From the NCBI GenBank assembly GCA_029937135.1, contig JAPYQX010000001.1, positions 5,790-69,789 on the forward strand: a stretch of DNA of 64,000 nt, written 5' to 3'. Positions 27,726 through 64,000 of this stretch are shown piece after piece (within the stretch, counting starts at the first letter, position 1; each line of letters begins with the position of its first letter). Source of the DNA: Nitrospinota bacterium. Its GTDB lineage: Bacteria > UBA8248. The notes under the pieces were generated by a model. The model was not told where the DNA came from, searched no databases, and worked only from the letters and a program-made list of their open reading frames with translations. The translations under genes were made by a program, and so were the position numbers.

Positions 27726-30020
27726 TCACCTTTTCGATTTCTTCGTAGATTGGCTCTGCTTTCCGTAGATTCGCCGATATTCGTCAAGATAGCCGAGAAC
27801 TTTTTTAACGTAATTGCGCGTTTCCTGATAAGGGATTCGTTCGATAAAAACTTCAATGGGCTCCTCGCCCCGCCTGGCCCACCATTTCTTAACCACCCTT
27901 TTGCCGGCGTTGTAGCTGGCGATCGCCGGAACGAGTTCACCCTTGAATCCTTTCACCAGATCGCCCAGATAACGCGCCCCGAGGCGCACGTTCAGCGCCG
28001 GGTCGAACAGGGCTTTATCCGAGGGCCGGGGGATTTTAAGTTTTCGGGACAACCGCCGCGCCGTGGCGGGCATGAGCTGCATGAGCCCGATGGCCCCGGC
28101 GCGCGAAAAAGCGTTTCGGTCGAAAAAACTCTCCGCGCGGATGATGGCGTTGACGAGGAGCGTATCGGCGTCGCCCGGCCTTTTTTTGTTTTGTTGGAGG
28201 GGAAACGCTATTTTCCAAAAAGAAGGCGGCAGATCTTTTCCCCCCGACCGGACGGCATCCCAGAAGGATTTGTGCATGATTTTTATCGCCATGTCATGGC
28301 GTTCTCCATTGAGGTACGCCCTGGCGGTCCGGAGTTTGAAGTAGGACGAGGGCCCCAGCCGCTTGAATTCCTCGGCGGCCAGGAAATAAAACCCCATGGA
28401 GCCGAGCAACTCCCCCGCCCGCCAGTGGTTCATCGAGCCCTTGGTGAGGATGTTTTTCGGGGGGTTAAGCCAATTCCGGTAGCCGGCCGTGGGCCGGGGA
28501 ATCGGCTTGGGGGCGAATCCCGACTCGCGGGCCATGCGCCCGAGGGCGGTTATCGCCCGCTGGCCGTAGTAGCGGTGCCGATAGATCCGGGCGCATTTCA
28601 GGAAAAGCGCCTCGGCCTTTTCCCGCTCCCCCGCCCGTTCGGCGGCTGTGGCGCCCCAGAAGAGGGCCGAGGAGGCGAGGCGGTGATTTGGATGGAGGGC
28701 TTCGAATTTCTCGAATCCCCGGGCCGCCTCGAAATAATCTTTTTCTCTTAAAAGAATCCACGAAAGCTGCCAGCGGGCTTTCGGGGCAAGCGGCGAGTAG
28801 GGATGTTTTTGAATGACCTCCCGGTAGAAGCGGGCGGCGTTTTCATACTCGCCGTCGTCCTCGCTGACCCGCGCGAGGAGAAACCGCGTCCGCCCCGCCC
28901 ACATCCCGTTGGGGGCCTCCTCCAGAAGCGCGCTTGCCTCGGACTTGAAGGCCAGATGATCGTGGCGGCGCAGTTGATTTCGGGTCAGATAGAAGCGGGC
29001 CTGCGCGCGGGCGGGGGAATCGGCGGGAAACAGATGAACGGCTTCCCGGAGCGCCCGCTGGGCTTTTTCGGTCCGGCGGAGTGAATAAAGGGTAAGCGAT
29101 TCGTAGAGGCTGACCTCTCGCTGATGAGGGGATGCCGGAAAGAGGCGGGTCAGCTCCCGGTAGGCCCCAAGGGCTTTTTCGTAGTGATATTTCTTCTGAA
29201 GATGCCGGGCCCTGAGAAAATAGTCGCGCGGCCCGAAGGGGCGAAGGGGAGGGGCCAGGGCCTGGCCGGCCTCACCGGCCCGCTCGAGGGCGCGCTTCGA
29301 GGCGGCGCTCTCCGGGTAGCGGAGCCATAGCCGCCTCCATGCGACCGTGGCTTCCCTCATGCGCCCGCCTCCCTCGAAAGCCTTGGCCCTCCTGGCCAGA
29401 AATTTTCCCGCTTTTTCGTGATTCGGTTTATGGCGAAGCAACTCGCCGAGCCGGGCGGCGGCGCGAAGAAATCGGCCGTTTTGAAACTCGATCCGGGCCA
29501 TCGTCTCCAGAGCGTCCGCGACGTGCGGACTCGCCGGGTCGGTAAGAGTTAATTTCTCCAGCGCCTTTTTCGCCGCCTCGCCGTCCTTGGCGGCAAGCGA
29601 CGCCCTTGCCGAAAAGTGAAGGATATGGGAGCGAAGCTCGGGCGCTTGGCGAAGGGCGCGTCTGAAATAGGATACGGCGTCCTGGTTGCGTTTCAGCTTT
29701 AACGAAGCGTAACCGAGTAAAAAAGAGCGGCGACCGTTCAACTGAGAGGTGTGTTCCTCCAGCCGGGACACCAGCTTTTTATAATTTTTCTTTTTGATGA
29801 GACGAAGTAAATCTTTTGGAAGCGCGGAAATCATCGGTGGTTTTTTCCGCTTGTTTCTTCTCTTGCTTGTTTTCTTTTTTAATTTGAAACCGGTTTTGGA
29901 GGGTTTCTTCAAATCAATGGAGGGGATCGGTATTTTAGGAGCGGAATGGGAATGGGAAAGGGAAGCAAAAGAATATACGGCGGCGAATGTCAGAGTGAAA
30001 ATAATTTTTCGGCGAACCAT
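27726..30020 (-). CDS. soluble lytic murein transglycosylase (Slt70-like; superhelical repeat domain plus SLT catalytic domain)
   Basis: Signal peptide, long TPR-like helical region, and a C-terminal SLT domain (ESFFDRNAFSRAGAIGLMQLMPATA....SYNAG). Confidence 0.85.
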   Translation of the reverse strand: MVRRKIIFTLTFAAVYSFASLSHSHSAPKIPIPSIDLKKPSKTGFKLKKKTSKRRNKRKKPPMISALPKDLLRLIKKKNYKKLVSRLEEHTSQLNGRRSFLLGYASLKLKRNQDAVSYFRRALRQAPELRSHILHFSARASLAAKDGEAAKKALEKLTLTDPASPHVADALETMARIEFQNGRFLRAAARLGELLRHKPNHEKAGKFLARRAKAFEGGGRMREATVAWRRLWLRYPESAASKRALERAGEAGQALAPPLRPFGPRDYFLRARHLQKKYHYEKALGAYRELTRLFPASPHQREVSLYESLTLYSLRRTEKAQRALREAVHLFPADSPARAQARFYLTRNQLRRHDHLAFKSEASALLEEAPNGMWAGRTRFLLARVSEDDGEYENAARFYREVIQKHPYSPLAPKARWQLSWILLREKDYFEAARGFEKFEALHPNHRLASSALFWGATAAERAGEREKAEALFLKCARIYRHRYYGQRAITALGRMARESGFAPKPIPRPTAGYRNWLNPPKNILTKGSMNHWRAGELLGSMGFYFLAAEEFKRLGPSSYFKLRTARAYLNGERHDMAIKIMHKSFWDAVRSGGKDLPPSFWKIAFPLQQNKKRPGDADTLLVNAIIRAESFFDRNAFSRAGAIGLMQLMPATARRLSRKLKIPRPSDKALFDPALNVRLGARYLGDLVKGFKGELVPAIASYNAGKRVVKKWWARRGEEPIEVFIERIPYQETRNYVKKVLGYLDEYRRIYGKQSQSTKKSKR

Positions 30021-31252
30021 TACTTTTTCGCGGTTCCGGTGCTTGAAGCCGGGCGCCCGCCCTCGACCCGAAGCTTTTCGTTTCGAAACGCTTCCTTGAC
30101 CCGGTCTCTCGCTTTTTTATCGAGGAAGATATCGACGCCGGTCATCGCGAGAGCCTTGGCCCCGAGGATAAGTGTTTTTTTCCCGGCGACTCCTCCAGCA
30201 GCCCTGGCGAAGGCCTGCGTGTGCGCGGAGATATCGGGCGATACCATTTGAATCTCGGGATGAATGGTGGGCGCGTTCTGGCTGGCGTTCCCGACATCCG
30301 AAGAACCCATGGCAAGGGGAGGAAGCGGATCCAGCTCAAAGACGCCCAGACTTTCGAGATTTTTTCTGAATAGAGAGGCCAACTCTCCGTTTACGCGCAT
30401 GGGCGCGTAGGTGATCGGATTTTTTTCGACGCGGACCCTGGTTCCGGTGGCGCGCGCCGCCCCCCTGGCGCAGTTGATGACTCGCTGGACAATATCATCG
30501 AGGCCTTTCGCGGTTTCACTCCGGACGTAAAACCAGGCGGATGCCTTTTCGGGGATGATGTTGGGCGCTTCTCCGCCCTCGGTGATCACTCCGTGGACCT
30601 TGGCGCCCGGCGGAAGGTGCTGCCTGAGAGCGGAAATGGCGCTGAATGTGGCGAGAACGCCATCCAGCGCGTTGATTCCTTTTTCGTGGGCCGCCGATGC
30701 ATGGGAGGCTTTGCCGTGAAAACGAAATCGAAGCTCCGCCAGGGCGAGGAAATTGACCATCGCGCGGGTCTCCCCCGAAGGATGCATCATCATATTGGCG
30801 TCGATTTTCCGGAAAAAACCCTTTTTCGCCATGATAACTTTTCCGCCCCCGCCCTCCTCGGCGGGTGTCCCAAGGACCTGGACGCCGCCTGCCTCGGGCC
30901 CCAAGACACTGACCAGCGCGGCGCCGGCTCCTGCGCTGGCCATGGCGATTACGTTGTGCCCGCAGGCATGTCCCAGGCCGGGAAGAGCATCGTATTCGGC
31001 CATGAACGAGACCACCGGCTTGCCCGCGCCCTTGGCCGGACGTTTTGCCCTGAAAGCGGTGGGAAGGTCCGCCACCCCCATCTCGACGCTGAAGCCCCGC
31101 TCCTCCAGGAACCGGGCGACGGCCGCCGAGGCGCGTTTTTCCTGAAAAGCCAGTTCGGGGTGGCGGTGGAGTTCGAGGGAAAGGGACCAAAGAGAAGGCA
31201 CTGCCACATCGATGCTCACGGCGACAGCGGATTTGATTCGGTCGAGTTCCAT
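30020..31252 (-). CDS. M20-family amidohydrolase (AbgB/hippurate hydrolase-like)
   Basis: Start MELDRIKSAV. HACGHN and other M20D metal-ligand motifs. Confidence 0.85.
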   Translation of the reverse strand: MELDRIKSAVAVSIDVAVPSLWSLSLELHRHPELAFQEKRASAAVARFLEERGFSVEMGVADLPTAFRAKRPAKGAGKPVVSFMAEYDALPGLGHACGHNVIAMASAGAGAALVSVLGPEAGGVQVLGTPAEEGGGGKVIMAKKGFFRKIDANMMMHPSGETRAMVNFLALAELRFRFHGKASHASAAHEKGINALDGVLATFSAISALRQHLPPGAKVHGVITEGGEAPNIIPEKASAWFYVRSETAKGLDDIVQRVINCARGAARATGTRVRVEKNPITYAPMRVNGELASLFRKNLESLGVFELDPLPPLAMGSSDVGNASQNAPTIHPEIQMVSPDISAHTQAFARAAGGVAGKKTLILGAKALAMTGVDIFLDKKARDRVKEAFRNEKLRVEGGRPASSTGTAKK

Positions 31253-31340
31253 GACAAGGACCCATGGGCGGATTGACCAGCGATTATCGCCGGAGCTTAG
31301 AATTGATGTCAACGATTCGTCGAAAACAACTGTATTGACG

Positions 31341-40177: not shown

Positions 40178-41452
40178 ATGGAAGCCGATTTAATCCTCCG
40201 GCTCGCCGCCTTTGTATTGTTGATGTTTCTCTCCGCGTTTTTTTCTGCCAGCGAGACGGCTTTTTTCTCCCTCAGCCGCGTCCGGGTGCAGGTTCTCCGC
40301 AAGGAAAGCCGGTCGGGTGAAAAAATCGCTTCGCTTCTCGATCGCCCGCGCCGGCTGATCATTTCCATCCTGATGGGAAATGAAATCGTCAATATCGTCG
40401 CTTCGGTGATATTCACGGGCGGGATTATCATTGTTCTGGGAGAAAGCCGGAGTTGGCTCGCTCCCATCCTGATGGCGCCGATCCTGATGGTGTTCGGAGA
40501 AATTTCGCCGAAATCCTTCGCGGCCCGTTTTCCTGAGTCACTGGCACGGGGCCTGGTGGTTCCGCTGACCTGGTTCACCAATATTATCCAACCGGTTCGC
40601 TGGGTATTCCTCCAAATCGCCAACGCGGTCCTTTCTCTTTTGGGCGCTTCGGTCAGGGATCAGAGCAATATTTTGATGGAAGACGAGTTCCTGACATTGG
40701 TCGATGCGGGTTTGGAGGAGGGCGAGCTGGACGCTACCGAGCAGGCCTATATCCGGAACATATTCGAGTTTTACGACAGGACCGTTGGCGAAATAACAAT
40801 TCCCCGCACGGACATGGAGTGCTGGGAAGCTGGTCTACCCCTTTCCGAGATATCAAGGCTGGTGCGGGAGTCGGCCCACTCGCGCGTCCCCATATACGAG
40901 AGCGACCGCGACCATATCGCCGGAATACTTTATCTGAGGGATTTTCTGGGTGTCTCCGGGCAAACGCAATTCGACCCCAAACTTCCACTGCCGCGCAAGT
41001 TGCTGCGCGAGCCGTTGATCGTTCCCGAAGGCATGAAACTCGATGCGCTCTTCCGCATCTTTCGGCAAGAGAGAACCCATCTGGCGATTGTGGCCGATGA
41101 GTTCGGCGGGGTCGCCGGATTAGTGACGATGAACGATTTGCTGGATGAAATATTCGGTGAAATCCGGGACGAATTCGACGAGCCGGAAAAGGCGGATATC
41201 GAGGGACAGCCGGACGGCGCTTTCATATGCCAGGCGCGGGTTCCTTTGTGGGATTTCTCGGAGGAAACCGGCTGGCTTCTTCCCGACTACGCCGAGGCCC
41301 ATTCCGTGGGCGGCCTGGTGTTCACCTTGATGGGTCATGTGCCCGAACCGGGCGAGAGCGTCCGCTACGGGGGAGTCGAGTTCACGGTCCTTGAGGTGGA
41401 GAATACCCGCGTGGTCCGGTTGCGGGCCGTGCGCATCGAGGAGAAAGGGTAA
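40178..41452 (+). CDS. HlyC/CorC-family transporter (DUF21/CNNM TM domain, CBS pair, CorC_HlyC)
   Basis: Four TM helices, a CBS pair and a C-terminal transporter-associated domain. Confidence 0.85.
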   Translation: MEADLILRLAAFVLLMFLSAFFSASETAFFSLSRVRVQVLRKESRSGEKIASLLDRPRRLIISILMGNEIVNIVASVIFTGGIIIVLGESRSWLAPILMAPILMVFGEISPKSFAARFPESLARGLVVPLTWFTNIIQPVRWVFLQIANAVLSLLGASVRDQSNILMEDEFLTLVDAGLEEGELDATEQAYIRNIFEFYDRTVGEITIPRTDMECWEAGLPLSEISRLVRESAHSRVPIYESDRDHIAGILYLRDFLGVSGQTQFDPKLPLPRKLLREPLIVPEGMKLDALFRIFRQERTHLAIVADEFGGVAGLVTMNDLLDEIFGEIRDEFDEPEKADIEGQPDGAFICQARVPLWDFSEETGWLLPDYAEAHSVGGLVFTLMGHVPEPGESVRYGGVEFTVLEVENTRVVRLRAVRIEEKG

Positions 41453-42735
41453 TGTCTCTGTGGGTATTCATCCCCGTCGGTATATTACTCCTCATCGGCG
41501 AGGCCCTCTTTTCGGGCTCCGAGATAGCCATTATCTCCGCGAACCGCGCCCGCCTTCGCACCCTGGCGAGGGAGGGTGACCGCGGGGCCGAAACGGCGCT
41601 ACGCCTCATCGATGCGCCCGAGTGGCTGATGGGAACGATTCTGACCTGCCACAATGTGTGTTTCGTGACCAATGTGACGCTGGCGACGCTGGCGGCGATA
41701 GAGCTTGTCGGCCCCGGATACGGGGAGCTTCTTTCAATCGTGTTGATCATCCCGTTCCTCGTGATTTTCGGCGAGGTGGTCCCGAAGAGCTATTGTCAGG
41801 AGCGCGCCGACGCACTCGCGCCCCGGCTGGCCCGGATAGTATGGGCCGCCCGGGGGGTGGTCTATCCAGCCGTGTGGCTCCTCAACCGTCTGATCCAATC
41901 GGTCCTGAACCGGGGAAGCGAGACAAACCACAGCAGCCCCTTCGTTACCCGCCAGGAACTCGAGCTCCTCGTCGAGGAGCCCAGAGAGGGCGACCTGCAG
42001 GCGGGCGAGCGAAAGATGATCGGCCGCATTTTGTCTTTTGGCGATCTGGATGTCGCCAATGTGATGGTGCCCCAGGTCGAGGTCTCGGCCGTGGACGAGG
42101 AGGCCACAATCGAAGAAGTGATTGAGCGAATCAAGACGGACGGGCACTCCAGCATCCTGGTCTACAAAGAGGAGATTCATCATATCGTCGGGGCCGTTGA
42201 CGCGAGGGATATCATCGCGATTGGAGAGGAAGCGCATGGCCCGCTCAAGGGAAAACCGGGTTTGATACGCGCCCCCTATTTTGTCCCCGAATCCCAACCG
42301 GCGGATGTCCTTCTTGAAGAGATGCAGCGCGAAAAGGTAAAACTCGCGGTGGTAGTGGACGAGTACGGCGGATGCGTGGGCGTCGTCACGATGGAAGATT
42401 TAATCGAGGAGATTGTCGGGGAGATCAGCGACGAATTCGACGTGGACGAAGGCGGGTTTTTCCAGCGATTTTCGGACGGAAAAATCATGGTGGATGCCCG
42501 GATGGAGGTCGAAGCGGTGCGGGAGGAGCTTTCGATTCCCGTTCCCGAGGGCGACTACGAGACCCTGGGCGGCTACCTCCTTGAAGTGTTTGAGCACATC
42601 CCGAAGAAGGGCGAGCGGGTAACGATCGATGGATGGAAATTCATCGTGGAAGAAGCCACTGCGAGGCAAATCGAGAAAATTAGCTGCGAGCCGGTTTCCG
42701 GGGAGCAGGTTTCAAAAAACAATCCCTCCGGCTAA
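41452..42735 (+). CDS. HlyC/CorC-family transporter, tandem paralog
   Basis: Same architecture as the upstream gene. The start overlaps the previous stop. Confidence 0.85.
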   Translation: MSLWVFIPVGILLLIGEALFSGSEIAIISANRARLRTLAREGDRGAETALRLIDAPEWLMGTILTCHNVCFVTNVTLATLAAIELVGPGYGELLSIVLIIPFLVIFGEVVPKSYCQERADALAPRLARIVWAARGVVYPAVWLLNRLIQSVLNRGSETNHSSPFVTRQELELLVEEPREGDLQAGERKMIGRILSFGDLDVANVMVPQVEVSAVDEEATIEEVIERIKTDGHSSILVYKEEIHHIVGAVDARDIIAIGEEAHGPLKGKPGLIRAPYFVPESQPADVLLEEMQREKVKLAVVVDEYGGCVGVVTMEDLIEEIVGEISDEFDVDEGGFFQRFSDGKIMVDARMEVEAVREELSIPVPEGDYETLGGYLLEVFEHIPKKGERVTIDGWKFIVEEATARQIEKISCEPVSGEQVSKNNPSG

Positions 42736-50162: not shown

Positions 50163-50645
50163 ATGAAAGTACTCAAGATCGTTCCCGAGCGGTGTACGGG
50201 CTGCATGAGGTGCGAGCTGGCCTGCTCCTATGAGCAAACCGGCGCCTTTCAGCCCTCCAAATCCGTTATCCGGGTTTCGGCGTTCGAGGGTCATACGAGC
50301 TATTCGCCCTACACCTGCCCCCAGTGCGACGAGGGGTGGTGTTTGACGGCCTGTCCCGTCGAGGCCATTTCGATCAATGCGGCGGGCGCGAAGGATGTCA
50401 TGGACGAAGCGTGCGTGGGTTGTAAGCTTTGCACCATCGCATGTCCCTACGGGACGATTTTCTACGACCCGGCCCGGCACAAGGCGTTCAAGTGCGATCT
50501 GTGCGGCGGTGCACCCGCCTGCGTGGATGTGTGCCCGAGGGCTGCCATTTTGTATGAGGAAGCCGAAGTGTCGGATTGGGTCGGGCCCTTCGCGGCCGAG
50601 CGGACTCACGGCCCCGGCGGGGCGCTCACGGCGGAGGTGAAATAA
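50163..50645 (+). CDS. 4Fe-4S ferredoxin-type electron-transfer subunit (AorA-like)
   Basis: Four Cys clusters (CTGCMRCELAC, CPQCDEGWCLTACP, CVGCKLCTIACP, CDLCGG..CVDVCP). Confidence 0.8.
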   Translation: MKVLKIVPERCTGCMRCELACSYEQTGAFQPSKSVIRVSAFEGHTSYSPYTCPQCDEGWCLTACPVEAISINAAGAKDVMDEACVGCKLCTIACPYGTIFYDPARHKAFKCDLCGGAPACVDVCPRAAILYEEAEVSDWVGPFAAERTHGPGGALTAEVK

Positions 50646-51973
50646 TGGCCAAACGTCACGTCATCGTCGGCGGGGGAACCGCCGGCTGGAACGCGATTAC
50701 CACGATTCGGGAAATTGACGGGGGGGATTCGGAGATTATTCTGGTATCCGCCGAAAACCCCTATTCGCGGATGGTTCTTCCCTACTACCTCTCGCAGGAA
50801 ATCGGCGAGGCGCATGTATTCACGGCGAGCGAAACCCGCCTTGGGGCGCTCGGGGTGGAGACGCGGTTTGGCCGCCGGGCGGTCAGGCTGAACCCCAACG
50901 ACAACAAGCTCATCCTCGATGACGACGAAGAGTTGGCCTATGACGATCTCCTGATCGCTACCGGCTCCTCGGCGGTCCGGGCGCCGGTGCCCGGCGCCGA
51001 CGGCGCGAATGTTCACAGCTTCTGGACGCTCGATCAGGCGAAGGAGGTGACCGCCAGTCTCAAACCGGGTGTGCGCGTGGCGATGATCGGTGCGGGTTTC
51101 ATTTCCTTTACGATTTTGAATGCCCTGATCAAGCGGGGCGCCGATCTCACCGTCATCGAGATCGCGCCGAGGATACTTCCCCGGATGGTGGACGACGCCG
51201 GGGCCGAAATCGTCCAGGGCTGGCTCGAGGAGCGAGGCGTGAAGATTCTGGCCGGAGCGGAGATCACTTCCATCGAGGATGCCCCGGGAGGCGGAAAGAC
51301 TCTCAAGCTCAAGGCCGGCGCGAACATCGAAGCCGATCTCGTGATCATGGCGACGGGAATCAAAACGAATCTGGAATGGCTCGAAGGCTCGGGTGTTGAG
51401 GTGAACAGCGGCGTTGTTGTCAACGATCACCTCCGCTCGAGCGATTCCAATATATATGCCGCGGGCGATGTGGCTGAGGGGCCCGATCTGCTGGGGGACG
51501 GAAAAGCGGTCCACGCCATCGAGCCCACCGCCATGCAGCACGGCAGGGTGGCCGGCGCGAACATGGCTGGCTTGGACACCGCCTACGAGGGCAGCCTCCT
51601 GATGAACATCGTCGATGTGCTCGATCTGGAGATTGCCAGCTTCGGCAACTGGAACGACGAAGATGCCGAAGTTATCCAGATTGTTAAAAAGGACCGTCCC
51701 GCCTACCGTAAACTTCTTTTTAACGGGGGGCGGCTCGTCGGGGCTATTCTCCTCGGGCGGAGCCGGGACATCTGGATGACGAACGACGTGGGGATGCTCA
51801 AGGGACTTGTTCAGAGCGGCTGCGATCTTTCCGAGTGGAAGGAGCACCTGCGCGGCAATCCATTTGATATCAAACGTGCATATCTCGCCGTGGGCGCCTC
51901 CGGGTCTCTGATACCGGAAACGCTGTTGGGCCGGCCCTCGGTCCCCGAGCGGGATATCGCTGTTCAGTCATAG
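50645..51973 (+). CDS. FAD-dependent pyridine nucleotide-disulfide oxidoreductase (AorC-like NAD(P)-linked subunit)
   Basis: ATG overlaps the previous stop. Contains GGGTAGWNA (FAD site), GAGFIS (NAD site) and AAGDVA motifs. Confidence 0.8.
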   Translation: MAKRHVIVGGGTAGWNAITTIREIDGGDSEIILVSAENPYSRMVLPYYLSQEIGEAHVFTASETRLGALGVETRFGRRAVRLNPNDNKLILDDDEELAYDDLLIATGSSAVRAPVPGADGANVHSFWTLDQAKEVTASLKPGVRVAMIGAGFISFTILNALIKRGADLTVIEIAPRILPRMVDDAGAEIVQGWLEERGVKILAGAEITSIEDAPGGGKTLKLKAGANIEADLVIMATGIKTNLEWLEGSGVEVNSGVVVNDHLRSSDSNIYAAGDVAEGPDLLGDGKAVHAIEPTAMQHGRVAGANMAGLDTAYEGSLLMNIVDVLDLEIASFGNWNDEDAEVIQIVKKDRPAYRKLLFNGGRLVGAILLGRSRDIWMTNDVGMLKGLVQSGCDLSEWKEHLRGNPFDIKRAYLAVGASGSLIPETLLGRPSVPERDIAVQS

Positions 51974-51997
51974 AAATAACATCGGGAGATACAGACA

Positions 51998-53884
51998 TTG
52001 AGCGACTCATACGCATATGCGGGACAAATCCTCAGAGTGGATCTTTCGGCCGGTAAAACATGGGCCGATCCGTTCACACCCGAGGACCAGCGGAAATATA
52101 TCGGCGGAGCCGGATTGGGCGCGAAAATCCTCTGGGAGGAAGTCCCCCCCGAGGTGGCATGGGACGATCCCGGCAACCGCCTCATCATGGCGACCGGCCC
52201 GCTCGCGGGCCTTCCGATTTGGGGAACGGGCGGGCTAACCGTCGTTACGCGTGGCGCGTTGACGGGGGGCGCCACAAACACGAACGCCAACGGCTTCTTC
52301 GGTGCGAATATCAAGCTCTGCGGTTATGACGCTCTTGTCCTCCAGGGACGCTCGGAGGGCTGGGTGTACGTTCATATCCAGGACGACCGGGTGGAGCTCA
52401 AGGACGCCACGCACCTGCTGGGCAAGGATACCTGGGAAACTCAACAGGCGCTCGAAAGCGAGTTGGGCCTCAGCGGCCACCAGCTCAGCGTGTATTCGAT
52501 TGGTCCGGCGGGCGAGAACCTTGTCCGCTTCGCCGCCATCCAGGGCGATTACGGCCATGTGGCGAGCAAAAACGGATGCGGGGCGGTCATGGGGAGCAAA
52601 AGAGTCAAGGCCGTGGTCATCGAGCGAGGTGGCAAGGGCATCTCGGTCGCTCACATGAAAGCGCTCTACGCCGCGGCGGACGAGATCGCCCACAATCTCC
52701 AGAACGATCCGAGTACAAAGGGCCTTTATCTGTACGGAACGCTGGGCGGGGTCCGGAATCTGCACGGGATGGGCGCTCTTCCTATCCGCAACTACACGAC
52801 GAACGTATGGCCTGATGGTTTGGAAACGAAAAAATGGGAGGGGCCCAGCCTCCGAGAGGGATTCGATCACCGGGGCCATCAGTGCAACGCCTGCGGCATG
52901 TACCATTGTCACATGCAGGTGATTTCCTCGGGGCCGCACAAGGGCGCCATCGTCGATGAACCCGAGTACGAGGGTTGGTCCGGGGCGGGCTGGGCCACCG
53001 GCGCCACCGAGCCCAGCGAGGTCTCCTGGATGAATACCCAGCTCGACCGCGCCTGCGTGGATGTCAACGAGTGGGGCTGGCTTTGCGGCTGGGTGATGGA
53101 GTGCCAGGAGAAGGGGTATATCAGCGAAAGCGACCTCGGCTTCCGGCTCGAATGGGGGGATATCGAAGGGGCGAACCGGCTGCTTCAGATGATCTCCCGC
53201 CGCGAGGGGATGGGCGATCTGCTCGCCGAGGGGGTGAAGCGGGCTTCCGAGAAGGTCGGGGGCGAGGCGGCGGACTGCGCCATTTATACGATGAAGGGCG
53301 ATTCGCCGCGCGGACACGACCACCGCGCGCGGTGGGAGGAGATGCTGGACACCTGCACCGGCGGCGGCGGGACGATGGACACCGCGCCCGCCGTGCAGCC
53401 GACCGAGTTTGGTCTTCCGGCCCGGATTGGCGCGCAGGACCCCGATTTGGTTCCCTTGGCGGTGGGGACGATGCGCGGCCGGCGTCATTTCGAGGATTCG
53501 CTGGGGGCGTGCGTGTTCACCACCCGCGTCCGGATGGAGGTGTTGTGCCGTTCGATCGAGGCCGCGACGGGCTGGGACATTCGCCGGGAGGAGGCGATGA
53601 CCGCCGGGCGGCGGACGGCGACGCTTTTCCGCGCTTTCAACCTGCGCTGCGGAATCGGCCCCGAGCTTGAGCGGCCCTCGAAGCGCTATGGCTCAACCCC
53701 CGTGGACGGTCCGCTCAAGGGGGTCTCGATCATGGACCAATGGGAAAAAATGCTGGATATTTGGTATGAGACCGTCGGCTATGATCGGGCGACGGGGCGG
53801 CCCACCGCCGAGACGCTCGCGGCGCTGGACCTCGAGGAGCTCATCGAGCCTCTCTGGGGCAAGGAAGCGGCCGCCAGGGTTTAA
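51998..53884 (+). CDS. aldehyde:ferredoxin oxidoreductase family tungsten enzyme (AorB-like)
   Basis: 628 aa. AOR N-terminal domain with a tungstopterin and [4Fe-4S] domain (Cys motifs CNACGMYHC, ...C...). Confidence 0.92.
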   Translation: MSDSYAYAGQILRVDLSAGKTWADPFTPEDQRKYIGGAGLGAKILWEEVPPEVAWDDPGNRLIMATGPLAGLPIWGTGGLTVVTRGALTGGATNTNANGFFGANIKLCGYDALVLQGRSEGWVYVHIQDDRVELKDATHLLGKDTWETQQALESELGLSGHQLSVYSIGPAGENLVRFAAIQGDYGHVASKNGCGAVMGSKRVKAVVIERGGKGISVAHMKALYAAADEIAHNLQNDPSTKGLYLYGTLGGVRNLHGMGALPIRNYTTNVWPDGLETKKWEGPSLREGFDHRGHQCNACGMYHCHMQVISSGPHKGAIVDEPEYEGWSGAGWATGATEPSEVSWMNTQLDRACVDVNEWGWLCGWVMECQEKGYISESDLGFRLEWGDIEGANRLLQMISRREGMGDLLAEGVKRASEKVGGEAADCAIYTMKGDSPRGHDHRARWEEMLDTCTGGGGTMDTAPAVQPTEFGLPARIGAQDPDLVPLAVGTMRGRRHFEDSLGACVFTTRVRMEVLCRSIEAATGWDIRREEAMTAGRRTATLFRAFNLRCGIGPELERPSKRYGSTPVDGPLKGVSIMDQWEKMLDIWYETVGYDRATGRPTAETLAALDLEELIEPLWGKEAAARV

Positions 53885-59566: not shown

Positions 59567-61372
59567 CTACGCGTGTTTCCTCGCCCTGAGCTCGGTCTTG
59601 CGGAAGCGAAAGGCGTCGGGCGTAACCTCGAGGCATTCCCCCTCTTTAAGAAACTCGATGGCCTGCTCAAGGCTGAACTGACGCGGCGGGACGATCTGGG
59701 CGCTGATGTCGGCGCCCGAGGCGCGCATGTTGGTGAGTTTTTTCTCTTTCGTGATGTTGATGTCCATGTTCTGCACCCGGCTGTTCTCGCCGATGATCAT
59801 CCCCTCGTAGACCTCATCGGTCGGCGAGACGAAGAGAACCCCCCGGTCCTGTAAATGTTCAATGGCGTAGGCGGTGACTTTCCCCCCCCGGTCGGCGACG
59901 AGGGCGCCCGTGATCCGGCCGGGGATATCTCCCGCCCAGGGCTCCCACCCTCCGAATAGGGTGGTGAAAATGCCGCTGCCCCGCGTATCGGTGAGAAATT
60001 CATTACGGTAGCCAAATAGTCCCCGGCTCGGAATTTTGAACTCGAGGCGGGCGCGGCCCCGGCCCGGGTTGGCCATCAGGGTCATCTTTCCCCGGCGCTC
60101 GCCGAGTTTTTGGGTGACGATGCCAATATATTCCTCGGGAATGTCGATGACGGCGTTCTCGACGGGCTCGAGCGTCTTTCCCCCATCAGTGCGCGTGATG
60201 ACCTCCGGCCGGCCGACGATGAGCTCGAACCCCTCGCGGCGAAGCTGCTCGATCAGGATGGCGAGCTGAAGCGAGCCGCGCCCCGATAGGCGGAAAGCGT
60301 CGGAGGAGCCGGTTTCCTCGGCCACGATGGCCGGGTTGTTCAGCGCTTCCCTGAAGAGGCGCTCCCCGATCTGGCGCGAGGTGAGGAGCTTGCCGCTCCG
60401 GCCCGAGAAGGGGGAATCGTTTACCCGGAAAACCATCGTGATTGTCGGCTCATCGAGAACGATGGGGGGAAGCGGGCGCGGGTCCTCCGGGTCGGCGATG
60501 GTGTCCCCGATGTTGATTGGATCAAAGCCCGCGACGGCGACGATATCCCCCGCCCGCGCCTCCTTGATTTCCTTTCGCTGGAGACCTTCGTAACCGTAAA
60601 GGACAGTCACCTCGGCGGTTTGGCTCTTGCCATCAACGCCGATCAGTGTGCATTTCTCACGGGCCCGGATCGAGCCGTTCCACACGCGCCCGATGGCGAG
60701 GCGGCCGACGTAGTTATCGTATTCGAGCTGTACGACGAGGAGCTGAAGCGGCGTGTCCTCATCGAATTTCGGCGGGGGAATGGTATCGAGCAGGGCTGCG
60801 AAAAGGGGATCGACGTTTTCCGCCAGCACGTCCGGGGAGGTGCCCGCCCGCCCGTCCTTGGCGATGGCGTAGAGGACGGGGAAATCGAGCTGATTTTCAG
60901 TCGCGTCGAGGTCGATAAAAAGATCGTAAATTTCGTTCAACACTTCCTCAATCCGCGCGTCCGAGCGATCCACCTTGTTGATAACAACGACGAAGGGAAG
61001 CTCATGCTCGAGGGCCTTTCCGACAACGAACCGCGTCTGCGGAAGCGGGCCCTCGGAGGCGTCCACGAGGAGCAGGGCTCCGTCCACCATTGAGAGCACC
61101 CGTTCGACCTCGCCGCCGAAATCGGCGTGCCCCGGCGTATCGACGATGTTGAAGGTCGTATCGCCGTATTTGATCGCGCAGTTTTTCGCCATGATCGTGA
61201 TGCCTTTTTCGCGCTCTAAATCCATCGAGTCGAGAACGCGCTCGGCTACCGCTTGGCCCTCGCGGAAAATACCGCTCTGCCAGAGCATGGAATCGACGAG
61301 GGTGGTCTTGCCGTGATCGACATGGGCGATGATGGCGAAGTTTCGGATGTCGTTTCGGGTGGTAATGGCCAT
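59567..61372 (-). CDS. typA: translational GTPase TypA/BipA
   Basis: ATG 6 nt after [23 protein letters not shown] and NKVD G-motifs. Total length about 600 aa. Confidence 0.95.
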
Positions 61373-61712
61373 GGGCCGCTCCTGGGTTTCCTTCAATTTT
61401 CCGCTTTCATAAAAGACGGCGCTCTCCTGCGGAGGGGCCGGGGCCCGCTGAGGGCCGGGGCGGACGGATAATGGCTGAAAAGGGGGGATGGTACAAGGGA
61501 AAAATCATGATCTGGCCACGTTTTTCTCGGGGGGTGAATTCCCCCGCGATAGCCTGTTTTCATGCCCCGGCTGGCCATTTCGCCCTGTATTTGGAAATAT
61601 ACTCATCATATTCCTGGAATTCGGAAAATCAGGTGTTTGGCGCACGGGCCCCCGGCGCCGGAGGAACCTGCTCGAATAGCCGATTTTGGGGGTATTTCAT
61701 GGAGGATTCGTT

Positions 61713-62267
61713 TTGGAAAAGCCGATTCTGACGACCGACCTCAGCTCCACGCCCGGCGAGCGTCTTATCGAAAAGCCCGAGCTTCCGCCCGGCGGGACCG
61801 TTTCCCGCCAGTGGGCGGAGACGGAATGGACGGGCGACGGCCAAATCAAGGTGGGGCGAAAGGAGAAATTCGAGGTATTTTGCGACGAGCCGCCGCGTAT
61901 CGGCGGGCAGGACCGCTACCCTCAACCGCTCACCTATATCTGCATGGGCGTTGGGTTCTGACTACTCACTCAATTGGCGCGGTACGCGCACATGATGAAA
62001 GTCGAGATTAAGTCGGCAAGCTGCCGGGTGGAGATGGATTATTTCCTGAAAGGCTCGGTGCTCAAGGGGACAGTGGATTCCGGTTGTACGGAGACGCGCA
62101 CTTTTTTCCGGGTGGAAAGCGACGCCCCGGCCGATAAAATTGCCCTGCTCATCCGGAACGCAAAGCAGGGATGCTACGCAGAGCGTATGATCCAGTCCGC
62201 CGTTCCGCTCAAGAGCGAGGTCGAGCTGAACGGCGCTCCCCTTAGCCTGGAAGGCATCACGAAGTAA
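61713..62267 (+). CDS. OsmC/Ohr-family protein with an in-frame TGA at 61959-61961 (candidate selenocysteine codon; alternatively a nonsense mutation)
   Basis: ORFs 61686..61961 and 61974..62267 are in the same frame and together give a complete OsmC fold (..FEVFCDEPPRIGGQDRYPQPLTYICMGVGF-TGA-LLTQLARYAHMMKVEI...NAKQGCYAERMIQ). A TTG lies 7 nt after GGAGG. Confidence 0.55.
61977..61989 (+). other. GC-rich hairpin (GCGCG-GUA-CGCGC) 16 nt downstream of the in-frame UGA; candidate minimal bacterial SECIS-like element
   Basis: Directly visible. The apical loop contains G and U. The distance from the UGA falls in the 16-37 nt window reported for bacterial SECIS elements. Confidence 0.3.
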
Positions 62268-62333
62268 TCGATACCGGGCTGGGGGGGGGGCACCCGAGCC
62301 TCGCCTTTTTCCCGCCCTGCGGAGAGGCTCTCA

Positions 62334-63173
62334 ATGAAACAGTTGACCGACCGCGTTTTTTACATGAACAGATACCCCACGGTGGGGCTAGTCGTTACTT
62401 CCGAAGGCGTCGTTGCCATCGACGGGCCGATGAAGCCCGGCGACGCGATTGAATGGCGCGATTTCATCGCCTCGAAGGGGCCCCTTCGCTACCAGGTCAA
62501 TACCGAGCACCATCAGGACCACATCACATCGAACTGGTATCTGAAAGCGGAGAAAATTATTTCGAGTGAGGCGACCTACGCGGATTTTCTCACCTCCCTC
62601 ACTTCGCTGGAGGTGACGCGGGGGCGGATGCTGAAATACGATCCGGGTTGCGACGCCCTTTTGGAGGGATACGAAATCCGGTGGCCCGACATTACGTTCA
62701 AAAGCCGGATGACGCTTCGACTCGGGGGCGAGACTTTTCACCTCATCCATTCGCCCGGCCACACACGGGGGCAAACTGTCGTACATGCCGTGGAGGCGCG
62801 GGTCGCTTTCACGGCCGACAACATCACCCCGGGGAATTATCCCTTTTTTCACTCCGCCGCCGTTTGGGAGTGGTTCGAGTCGCTTGCTCTTCTCGAATCG
62901 CTCGATGTGGACTGGTACGTGCCGGGGCACGGGGAGCCTTGCAGGAAAGACGAAATCCCCCGGCAGCGGCAGATAATGTTCGACATCATCAACGAAATTA
63001 AAGAGCTTAAAAACCAGGGCCTCGGCCGGGAGGAGGTCCAGGAGCGGGTGAACTACATTGATCAGCCGGGTCTCGATCACCCACGCGTTCTGGGGCCCCG
63101 CGCCTATGAACTGCAAAAAGGGGGCGTAGGAAACATTTACGACGCGCTCGGCGATCATCCCTCAGGGCCTTGA
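62334..63173 (+). CDS. MBL-fold metallo-hydrolase
   Basis: HHQDH and HSPGHTRG motifs. Confidence 0.8.
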   Translation: MKQLTDRVFYMNRYPTVGLVVTSEGVVAIDGPMKPGDAIEWRDFIASKGPLRYQVNTEHHQDHITSNWYLKAEKIISSEATYADFLTSLTSLEVTRGRMLKYDPGCDALLEGYEIRWPDITFKSRMTLRLGGETFHLIHSPGHTRGQTVVHAVEARVAFTADNITPGNYPFFHSAAVWEWFESLALLESLDVDWYVPGHGEPCRKDEIPRQRQIMFDIINEIKELKNQGLGREEVQERVNYIDQPGLDHPRVLGPRAYELQKGGVGNIYDALGDHPSGP

Positions 63174-63376
63174 AACGGCCCTGGAAGTTTCTTGAAACCG
63201 CCGTGACGCTGCAGCGGGATTTCACTGATTCACCGGGTCCGGCCCGCTTCGGGCTGGCGTACCCCCGCTTTCCCGATATTGCCAATTTGCCCGCCTTGTA
63301 GTCGCCCGGGCGCGGAGGGTAAAATGAGCCGGGTCGGAGTTTGTTTTTTGGTCGCCTTAACTGGAGTGGTTTTTTC

Positions 63377-64000
63377 ATGGAATACATTCATGTAGATGAA
63401 ATCCCGGAATTGAACAATCCGCTTTTTGTCCTGGCTTTCGAGGGTTGGAATGACGCGGCCCAGTCGGCGACCATCGCGGCGAGGTACCTGGTTAACCGCT
63501 TCGACGGCAAGCGGTTCGCGGGGTTCAAGTCGGACGAATTTTTCCAGTTCTCGGATCAACGGCCGCACGTCCGCCTCGACATCGACGGAAACCGCATGAT
63601 CACCTGGCCCGAAAATTCGTTTTTTTATTGCAAGCATCCTGATTTGGCGCGTGACCTTGTGGTGTGCATTGGCGTTGAACCTCAATTGAGGTGGAAGTCA
63701 TTCAGCCGGGGCGTCATGGAGCTCATCCGCAGGTGCGGCTCCGGGCTCACGGTGACGATGGGCGGGCTACTGGCGGGAAACCCCCATGACGAGCCTCTGG
63801 AGCTTGTATGCCTCGCGACGGAGCCGCGGCTGGCCGCCCTCACGGGTGTCCAGGTGACGAAATACGAAGGGCCCACGGGGATCATCGGCGTTATTCACAC
63901 CGAGCTTCAGGATGCCCACATGCAGGCCGTGAGCCTTTGGGTCAACATTCCCCAGAAAATTTCATCGCTTCCGAATCCCAAGGGAGCCTATGCGCTCCTC
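63377..64000 (+). CDS. PAC2-family protein (3'-partial, continues past the window end)
   Basis: ATG 8 nt after GGAGTGG. VLAFEGWNDA near the N-terminus is typical of PAC2 / ATP-grasp-like proteasome-assembly-chaperone family proteins. No stop codon before position 64000. Confidence 0.65.
   Translation, partial: MEYIHVDEIPELNNPLFVLAFEGWNDAAQSATIAARYLVNRFDGKRFAGFKSDEFFQFSDQRPHVRLDIDGNRMITWPENSFFYCKHPDLARDLVVCIGVEPQLRWKSFSRGVMELIRRCGSGLTVTMGGLLAGNPHDEPLELVCLATEPRLAALTGVQVTKYEGPTGIIGVIHTELQDAHMQAVSLWVNIPQKISSLPNPKGAYALL

Follow-up and report, generated by a model that had tools for sequence, protein, structure and literature searches.

An OsmC-related gene with a conserved in-frame UGA and a downstream hairpin in a Nitrospinota-related bacterium: a probable selenoprotein of a known family

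An OsmC-like selenoprotein family carrying its selenocysteine (Sec) in a UxxT motif was reported in the Sargasso Sea selenoproteome (Table 3 of Zhang, Fomenko and Gladyshev 2005; PMC1088965), and it is still included in reviews from 2022 (PMC9312934) and 2026 (PMC13188914). The family is also represented by a curated profile, NCBIfam NF041052, "OsmC-related (seleno)protein" (OsmC_like_Se); in the literature, we found no biochemical characterisation of any NF041052 member. The closest described enzymes are E. coli OsmC/Ohr (PDB 1qwi, 1nye, 1n2f, 1zb9), which are two-cysteine organic hydroperoxide reductases. In these proteins one cysteine, on the central helix, is peroxidatic and is activated by a catalytic Arg and Glu; the other, near the C-terminal helices, is resolving, and the enzymes are reduced in a lipoyl-dependent manner. 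Cysteine is the usual counterpart of Sec in the homologs of selenoproteins, and this Sec/Cys pairing is a classical selenoprotein signature.

Our study identified a further gene of this kind in the window (the whole 64 kb stretch of DNA that was analysed). As in the 2005 family and in NF041052, its product has an OsmC-type domain with the Sec position in a U-x-x-T motif (here U-L-L-T), Cys homologs exist, and the UGA is followed directly by a hairpin whose small apical loop contains G. No substantive point sets it apart from them; its host is a Nitrospinota-related uncultured bacterium, and the gene is unannotated as a selenoprotein. Since the 2005 publication already described the family, its Sec motif and its SECIS, and a curated profile is available, the gene is an ordinary member of an already known family. 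A first-pass annotation, made from the sequence of the window, had proposed a candidate selenoprotein at this position and had placed it in the context of anaerobic deltaproteobacterial selenoproteomes. The selenoprotein reading is supported by several of the lines of evidence presented below, namely the conservation of the TGA, a covarying hairpin, the match to NF041052, the alignment with Cys homologs and the recurrence of the TGA in independent contigs. As for the proposed context, the OsmC-like selenoprotein family has indeed been reported, but the host belongs to a Nitrospinota-related lineage (GTDB UBA8248-type) and is not an anaerobic deltaproteobacterium.

Translation of positions 61686-62267 on the forward strand gives 91 residues, a TGA and then 101 residues up to the TAA at 62265-62267. 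Two ORFs, 61686-61961 and 61974-62267 (+), share this reading frame, and the TGA at 61959-61961 is all that separates them. When the joined protein was searched with Cys substituted at the TGA, the Pfam OsmC profile (PF02566) matched residues 74-177 over profile positions 1-99 of 100 (E 4.5e-11; 43.5 bits against a cutoff of 27.5). Since this match runs across the TGA junction, the two ORFs are halves of one domain, as the first-pass annotation had read them. NF041052 itself matched over profile positions 13-144 of 144 with 172.2 bits (cutoff 95; E 5.8e-51), which places the protein in that family. Codons 81-87 around the TGA read GF-U-L-L-T-Q, a U-x-x-T motif within an OsmC/COG1765-type domain in which the presumed Sec is codon 83. 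The second cysteine (KQGCYAE), described earlier as intact downstream of the TGA, is indeed present as codon 154 (62172..62174, +); it is invariant in our alignment (A6) and is the presumed resolving cysteine.

The complete gene extends over 61713..62267 (+), with 184 codons followed by the TAA. Its start had previously been placed at 61686; the comparison with relatives argues for a different position. In two of the closest relatives, L004 and L005, an ATG aligns with the TTG at 61713..61715 (+), which is where conservation begins, and a Shine-Dalgarno-like GGAGGA can be read at 61701..61706 (+), 6 nt 5' of that codon. For these reasons, the TTG at 61713 is most likely the real start, and the upstream in-frame TTG at 61686 is probably an over-extension by 9 codons. 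The aligned ATG codons of L004 and L005 are also preceded by purine-rich stretches (AAAAAGGG and AGGAGAGGAG), and public gene calls likewise begin at TTG 61713, giving an 82-aa N-terminal half. The protein opens with an N-terminal extension of about 45 residues, which contains the conserved motif PGERxIDKPELP.

Special attention was given to the conservation of the TGA among relatives. We scanned 185,579 species-representative genomes (GTDB), which yielded 207 relatives, and used the best 80 of the 207 loci; these come from MAGs of Nitrospinota, Tectomicrobia, Burkholderiales/Betaproteobacteria and Woeseiaceae. The TGA is found at the Sec site in 86 of the 86 copies inspected, which comprise 82 copies in the best 80 of the 207 loci, the window itself and the same locus in three metagenome contigs. 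Identity to the window protein in the best 80 loci is 47-88% for the N-terminal half and 53-86% for the C-terminal half; the half that follows the TGA is as conserved as the half that precedes it, and coding constraint therefore extends past the TGA. In homologs at a greater distance (39-47% identity), the TGA column holds Cys. Four of them (P0002, P0003, P0004 and P0008) read GFCLLTQ, and the Cys codon in their DNA is TGC or TGT. An in-frame UGA that orthologs keep, coding conservation that continues 3' of it and Cys homologs aligned to it are what is looked for in a selenoprotein gene, and each of these features is found here.

It is important to consider that the same arrangement could arise in a pseudogene, in which a nonsense mutation had turned the Cys codon TGC or TGT into TGA and the downstream half was left untranslated. 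One base change is enough for this, and gene callers do report two short unnamed ORFs. Three factors make this explanation so improbable that we give it almost no weight. First, the TGA occupies the same codon in all 86 copies, which span several phyla. Second, protein conservation is no weaker in the downstream half than in the upstream one, and substitutions there do not follow a neutral pattern. Third, a conserved, covarying hairpin lies 3' of the TGA, and the curated model NF041052 expects Sec.

Because the source is a metagenome-type assembly, the TGA could also be a sequencing or assembly error for TGC or TGT. We consider the likelihood of this to be negligible: an identical 55-nt context around the TGA occurs in nine independent contigs (from six NCBI metagenome assemblies and three assemblies of SRA runs), and the TGA is also present in orthologs at 80-88% identity.

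The same contigs differ from one another in the N-terminal half. A 36-nt in-frame segment at 61750..61785 (+), which encodes the conserved N-terminal motif PGERLIEKPELP and was delimited by alignment with L001-L003, is flanked by 9-nt direct repeats (CGCCCGGCG) at 61750-61758 and 61786-61794. Seven of the nine independent contigs lack the segment, which the window and one other contig (L089/L090) retain; this looks like a repeat-mediated deletion allele that would be common in the population. A length difference in a poly-G stretch, suspected at 62281-62290, was checked and is absent.

The public gene calls in the protein collection searched divide the gene in two, an N-terminal ORF of 82 or 70 aa and a C-terminal one of 91 aa, which are unnamed or labelled "hypothetical protein". 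The split ORFs correspond to window positions 61713-61961 and 61992-62267, and the same division occurs at loci L001, L003 and L090-L095; the selenoprotein is consequently missing from those protein sets. One further homolog, P0005, appears in its database translation with Trp at the Sec site, probably a TGA translated under another code table.

Comparisons with solved structures locate the TGA within the fold. In HMMER alignments, it coincides exactly with the first conserved Cys in PDB 2opl, 3cje and 1vla, and KQGC falls on the second conserved Cys of 3cje (KKGC). The first-pass annotation had put the TGA within one residue of the first cysteine; the three structures, together with the Cys homologs that read GF[C]LLTQ, show the match to be exact. 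Both redox positions of the two-cysteine OsmC/Ohr proteins are therefore kept, as U83 and C154. Alignment with E. coli OsmC is less direct. C154 pairs with its Cys125 in a weak profile-comparison alignment (E 0.015, probability 3%) that covers the C-terminal Cys region only, and in a MAFFT alignment its Cys59 lies two columns away from U. The spacing P-x10-C, counted by eye on the MAFFT alignment, restores the register between Cys59 and U and is consistent with the HMMER results for 2opl, 3cje and 1vla; the two-column offset is thus probably a misplacement.

A structural model was available for the Cys homolog P0002, which is 47% identical to the window protein and is not the window protein itself (AF2, pLDDT 76). 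In this model the first Cys lies within a long helix and the second at a helix junction, and the only structures it matches in the PDB, 39 at E <= 0.001, are those of OsmC/Ohr proteins. The family thus appears, on modelling, to share the fold of E. coli OsmC/Ohr, in which the central helix bears the redox residue and a second Cys precedes a C-terminal helix. Unlike E. coli OsmC/Ohr, the window protein is predicted to have Sec in place of the first Cys, its identity to these proteins is only about 10-20%, and it carries the N-terminal extension with PGERxIDKPELP, which classical OsmC lacks.

The second main element of the locus is the hairpin that follows the TGA. The first-pass annotation had pointed out a GC hairpin with a loop containing G and U at 61977-61989, and our analysis finds it there, with the sequence GCGCG-GUA-CGCGC and a 15-nt spacer that separates the UGA from its stem. 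The SECIS-type element as delimited by folding and comparative data occupies 61976..61992 (+). Its core stem pairs 61977-61981 with 61985-61989 around a GUA loop at 61982-61984, and in the window it can be extended by G61976-C61991 and U61975-A61992 around a bulged A61990, for a total of 5-7 bp. A stem of this length and a small G-containing loop, GUA at +24 to +26, are features of a SECIS; the distance is likewise SECIS-like by the numeric limits of bSECISearch. The 64 kb window contains a single match to the degenerate 13-nt pattern GNGCGGTACGCNC, where 0.02 would be expected. An Rfam scan of 61600-62400 at E <= 10 returned no SECIS family, and its only hit was a chance match to a lncRNA. 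In terms of energy, the 81 nt examined have a z of -1.05 and are no more stable than shuffled sequence; since fold stability is unremarkable, the evidence for the hairpin is comparative and not energetic.

This comparative evidence comes from an alignment of 78 distinct sequences that covers the TGA with 9 nt on its 5' side and 63 nt on its 3' side. All 78 contain the core stem and the GUA loop. Across these sequences, the six-pair structure has standard pairs in 97% of cells, and three of its pairs are invariant. One pair, 29-39, covaries (CG in 55 sequences, GC in 19, AU in 2 and GU in 2, with none unpaired). The covariation score of the hairpin was reached by none of 500 shuffles, and pairing deteriorates strongly when the 3' partners are shifted by one to three columns. 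It is important to note that the covariation rests on a single pair, because variation within the six-pair stem is confined to it. The 5' base of that pair is a second codon position, where the change alters the amino acid (Ala/Gly/Glu); the 3' base opposite it is the third, wobble position in an Ala codon (GCG, GCC or GCT).

Constraint is also visible at synonymous positions within the stem-loop. Positions +20, +23 and +26 have zero entropy, while flanking synonymous sites range over 0.5-1.9 bits; they correspond to the G that ends the Ala/Gly/Glu codon, the G of CGG and the C of TAC, respectively. Inside the hairpin Arg is always encoded by CGG and Tyr always by TAC, against 35% of Arg codons and 55% of Tyr codons in the genes of the window. 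The hairpin is unconserved in the Cys-type homologs, where the Arg codon is CGC, CGA or CGG (three distinct sequences only); one of these homologs, L084, forms a shifted stem with a UAC loop. In view of its position and conservation, we infer that the hairpin acts as a bacterial SECIS.

The SelB-binding SECIS of E. coli fdhF (UGA140) offers the nearest point of comparison, since it too is a coding-region hairpin that lies shortly after the UGA. Counting from the U of UGA, the G-U of the loop lies at +24/+25 here and at +23/+24 in fdhF (MG1655 record), that is, one nucleotide apart. The window hairpin differs from the fdhF element in having a shorter stem made up entirely of G-C pairs and a 3-nt loop (G-GUA-C) instead of GGUC. 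It also has no evident counterpart of the bulged U17, and the two sequences are unrelated.

A further possibility is that the UGA is recoded to something other than Sec, either as Trp or Gly throughout the genome or as Cys through a SelB/SECIS-like route with a Cys-charged tRNA. The earlier statement that the window holds no sel genes agrees with our results, which could be taken in favour of such recoding: Pfam annotation of 50 ORFs found no SelA, SelB or SelD domains and hence no selA, selB or selD in the 64 kb, and ARAGORN found no tRNA in the window; no tRNA-Sec was found in 60 related loci either. The Trp of homolog P0005 points in the same direction, but it most likely reflects the code table of the gene caller. 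Against recoding, 14 of the window's 43 other genes with Pfam support end in TGA, among them ligA, tolB and the adjoining MBL-fold gene. UGA is therefore not reassigned genome-wide, in agreement with the previous remark that TGA serves as a normal stop in neighbouring genes. Moreover, homologs align Cys with this codon, as is usual for Sec positions, and the lineage of the closest syntenic relative is listed among the richest selenoproteomes. Insertion of Cys at the UGA would look the same as Sec insertion in the sequence, but we saw no positive sign of it. Taking both sides together, we regard recoding to a residue other than Sec as highly unlikely, and Sec as the reading of this codon to be preferred.

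The relationship to selenoprotein-rich genomes is based on gene order. The arrangement bipA (minus strand), OsmC(Sec), MBL-fold hydrolase and PAC2, which occupies 59567-64000 of the window, is common to the Nitrospinota MAG L004, at 83-88% identity; L005 (FO_M_Nitrospinota_01), at about 80%, has the same order without the MBL gene. A database restricted to species that have two or more genes of the Sec pathway lists 54 selenoprotein genes for FO_M_Nitrospinota_01, a count that places it in the top ten of bacterial selenoproteomes (PMC13326102). By analogy with this syntenic relative, the source genome would be expected to encode the sel machinery.

Our analysis also included a six-frame scan of the window for coding-like ORF pairs split by one TGA, in which no second selenoprotein gene was seen. 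Seven other candidate pairs were rejected: most look like antisense shadows of real genes, and in one, located upstream of 30020-31312, the upstream half is non-coding-like. A weak terminator-like stem with a T-run is found at 62287-62310, between the selenoprotein and MBL-fold genes; such sites are unenriched relative to shuffled sequence. Elsewhere in the window, a gene for a pyridine nucleotide-disulfide oxidoreductase with a rubredoxin-reductase C-terminal domain lies directly 5' of one for an aldehyde:ferredoxin oxidoreductase (AFOR), whose family consists of tungsten or molybdenum enzymes (50576-53884), and two paralogous CNNM/CBS/CorC-type transporter genes (424 and 427 aa) stand back to back on the same strand at 40178-42735.

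Taken as a whole, the locus very probably encodes one 184-residue U-x-x-T selenoprotein of the NF041052 family, in which the UGA is recoded through a SECIS and whose chemistry is likely that of a peroxidase. During translation, the UGA at 61959 would be read as selenocysteine and not as a stop. The hairpin 15 nt downstream would serve as the SECIS and would bring SelB-GTP-Sec-tRNA(Sec) to a ribosome that has paused on this codon, and translation would then continue after Sec to the TAA at 62265; these steps are modelled on the established bacterial pathway of Sec insertion. In the protein, Sec83 would take the place of the first (peroxidatic) Cys of OsmC/Ohr and Cys154 that of the resolving Cys. 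A hydroperoxide would likely be reduced by Sec83 by way of a selenenic acid, Cys154 would resolve this intermediate to a selenenyl-sulfide, and a thiol or lipoyl donor would re-reduce the enzyme. Both the peroxidase activity and the reductant are proposed by analogy with OsmC/Ohr enzymology, through homology at about 20% identity.

Alternatively, the product could be a selenoprotein of the OsmC fold that is not a hydroperoxide reductase, but a distinct Se-dependent redox module or a module for Se/S handling or transfer, acting on another substrate. The protein is distant from characterised OsmC/Ohr proteins (E 1e-8 or weaker, about 20% identity to solved structures), the PGERxIDKPELP extension absent from classical OsmC is conserved, a nearly identical SECIS is kept across phyla, and an AIR-synthase-like gene with SelD/HypE-like scores below cutoff comes next in 17 paralog loci. 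On the other hand, both OsmC/Ohr redox positions (U83 and C154) are kept, and the Cys-type homologs adjoin a GcvH-like lipoyl carrier, which fits the lipoyl-dependent reduction of Ohr/OsmC. We therefore consider a role outside hydroperoxide reduction unlikely, if deserving of consideration; a UGA read as Cys instead of Sec would presumably be rarer still. The peroxidase-type selenoprotein is retained as the preferred reading.

The neighbours of the gene in related genomes differ between the Cys-type and Sec-type loci. A GcvH-like (PF01597) lipoyl-carrier gene is located directly 3' of the Cys-type homologs L084 (3618-4010) and L086 (1356-1669). Among the Sec-type loci examined, a GcvH-like match was found only in L009, on the opposite strand and about 2.5 kb upstream. 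This neighbour may hint at the physiological reductant or lipoyl donor.

In 17 of the 80 loci (best 80 of 207), which belong to one paralog group, an AIR-synthase-family gene is found 3' of the OsmC(Sec) gene, approximately 30-1300 nt downstream; these loci include L018, L019, L021, L025, L027-L031, L036, L038, L040 and L048. In many loci of this group a tRNA-Phe gene also lies downstream. The AIR-synthase-family protein scores 97.5 bits with the SelD profile (cutoff 125) and 101.5 bits with that of HypE (cutoff 251.6). It has PVGK at the position where E. coli SelD has CGCK, and is thus without the catalytic Cys/Sec. A link between this neighbour and selenium handling is possible.

Duplications of the gene were also observed. 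Two tandem copies, as separate ORFs each with its own TGA and hairpin, are present in L012 (2418-3555), L020 (3007-4143) and L037 (1013-2164). In P0001, from Nitrospinaceae, the C-terminal half of one copy runs without a stop into the N-terminal half of the next, which suggests that P0001 is part of a fused protein that would contain two Sec residues.

For the biology of the lineage the gain is small, as the gene adds one more instance in a lineage already reported to be rich in selenoproteins. Its value is mainly practical: protein sets based on the split gene calls miss a selenoprotein that a curated model, NF041052, would recognise once the two halves are joined. Finally, the locus provides a clean comparative case of a bacterial SECIS embedded in a coding region, and it could help to refine SECIS models.
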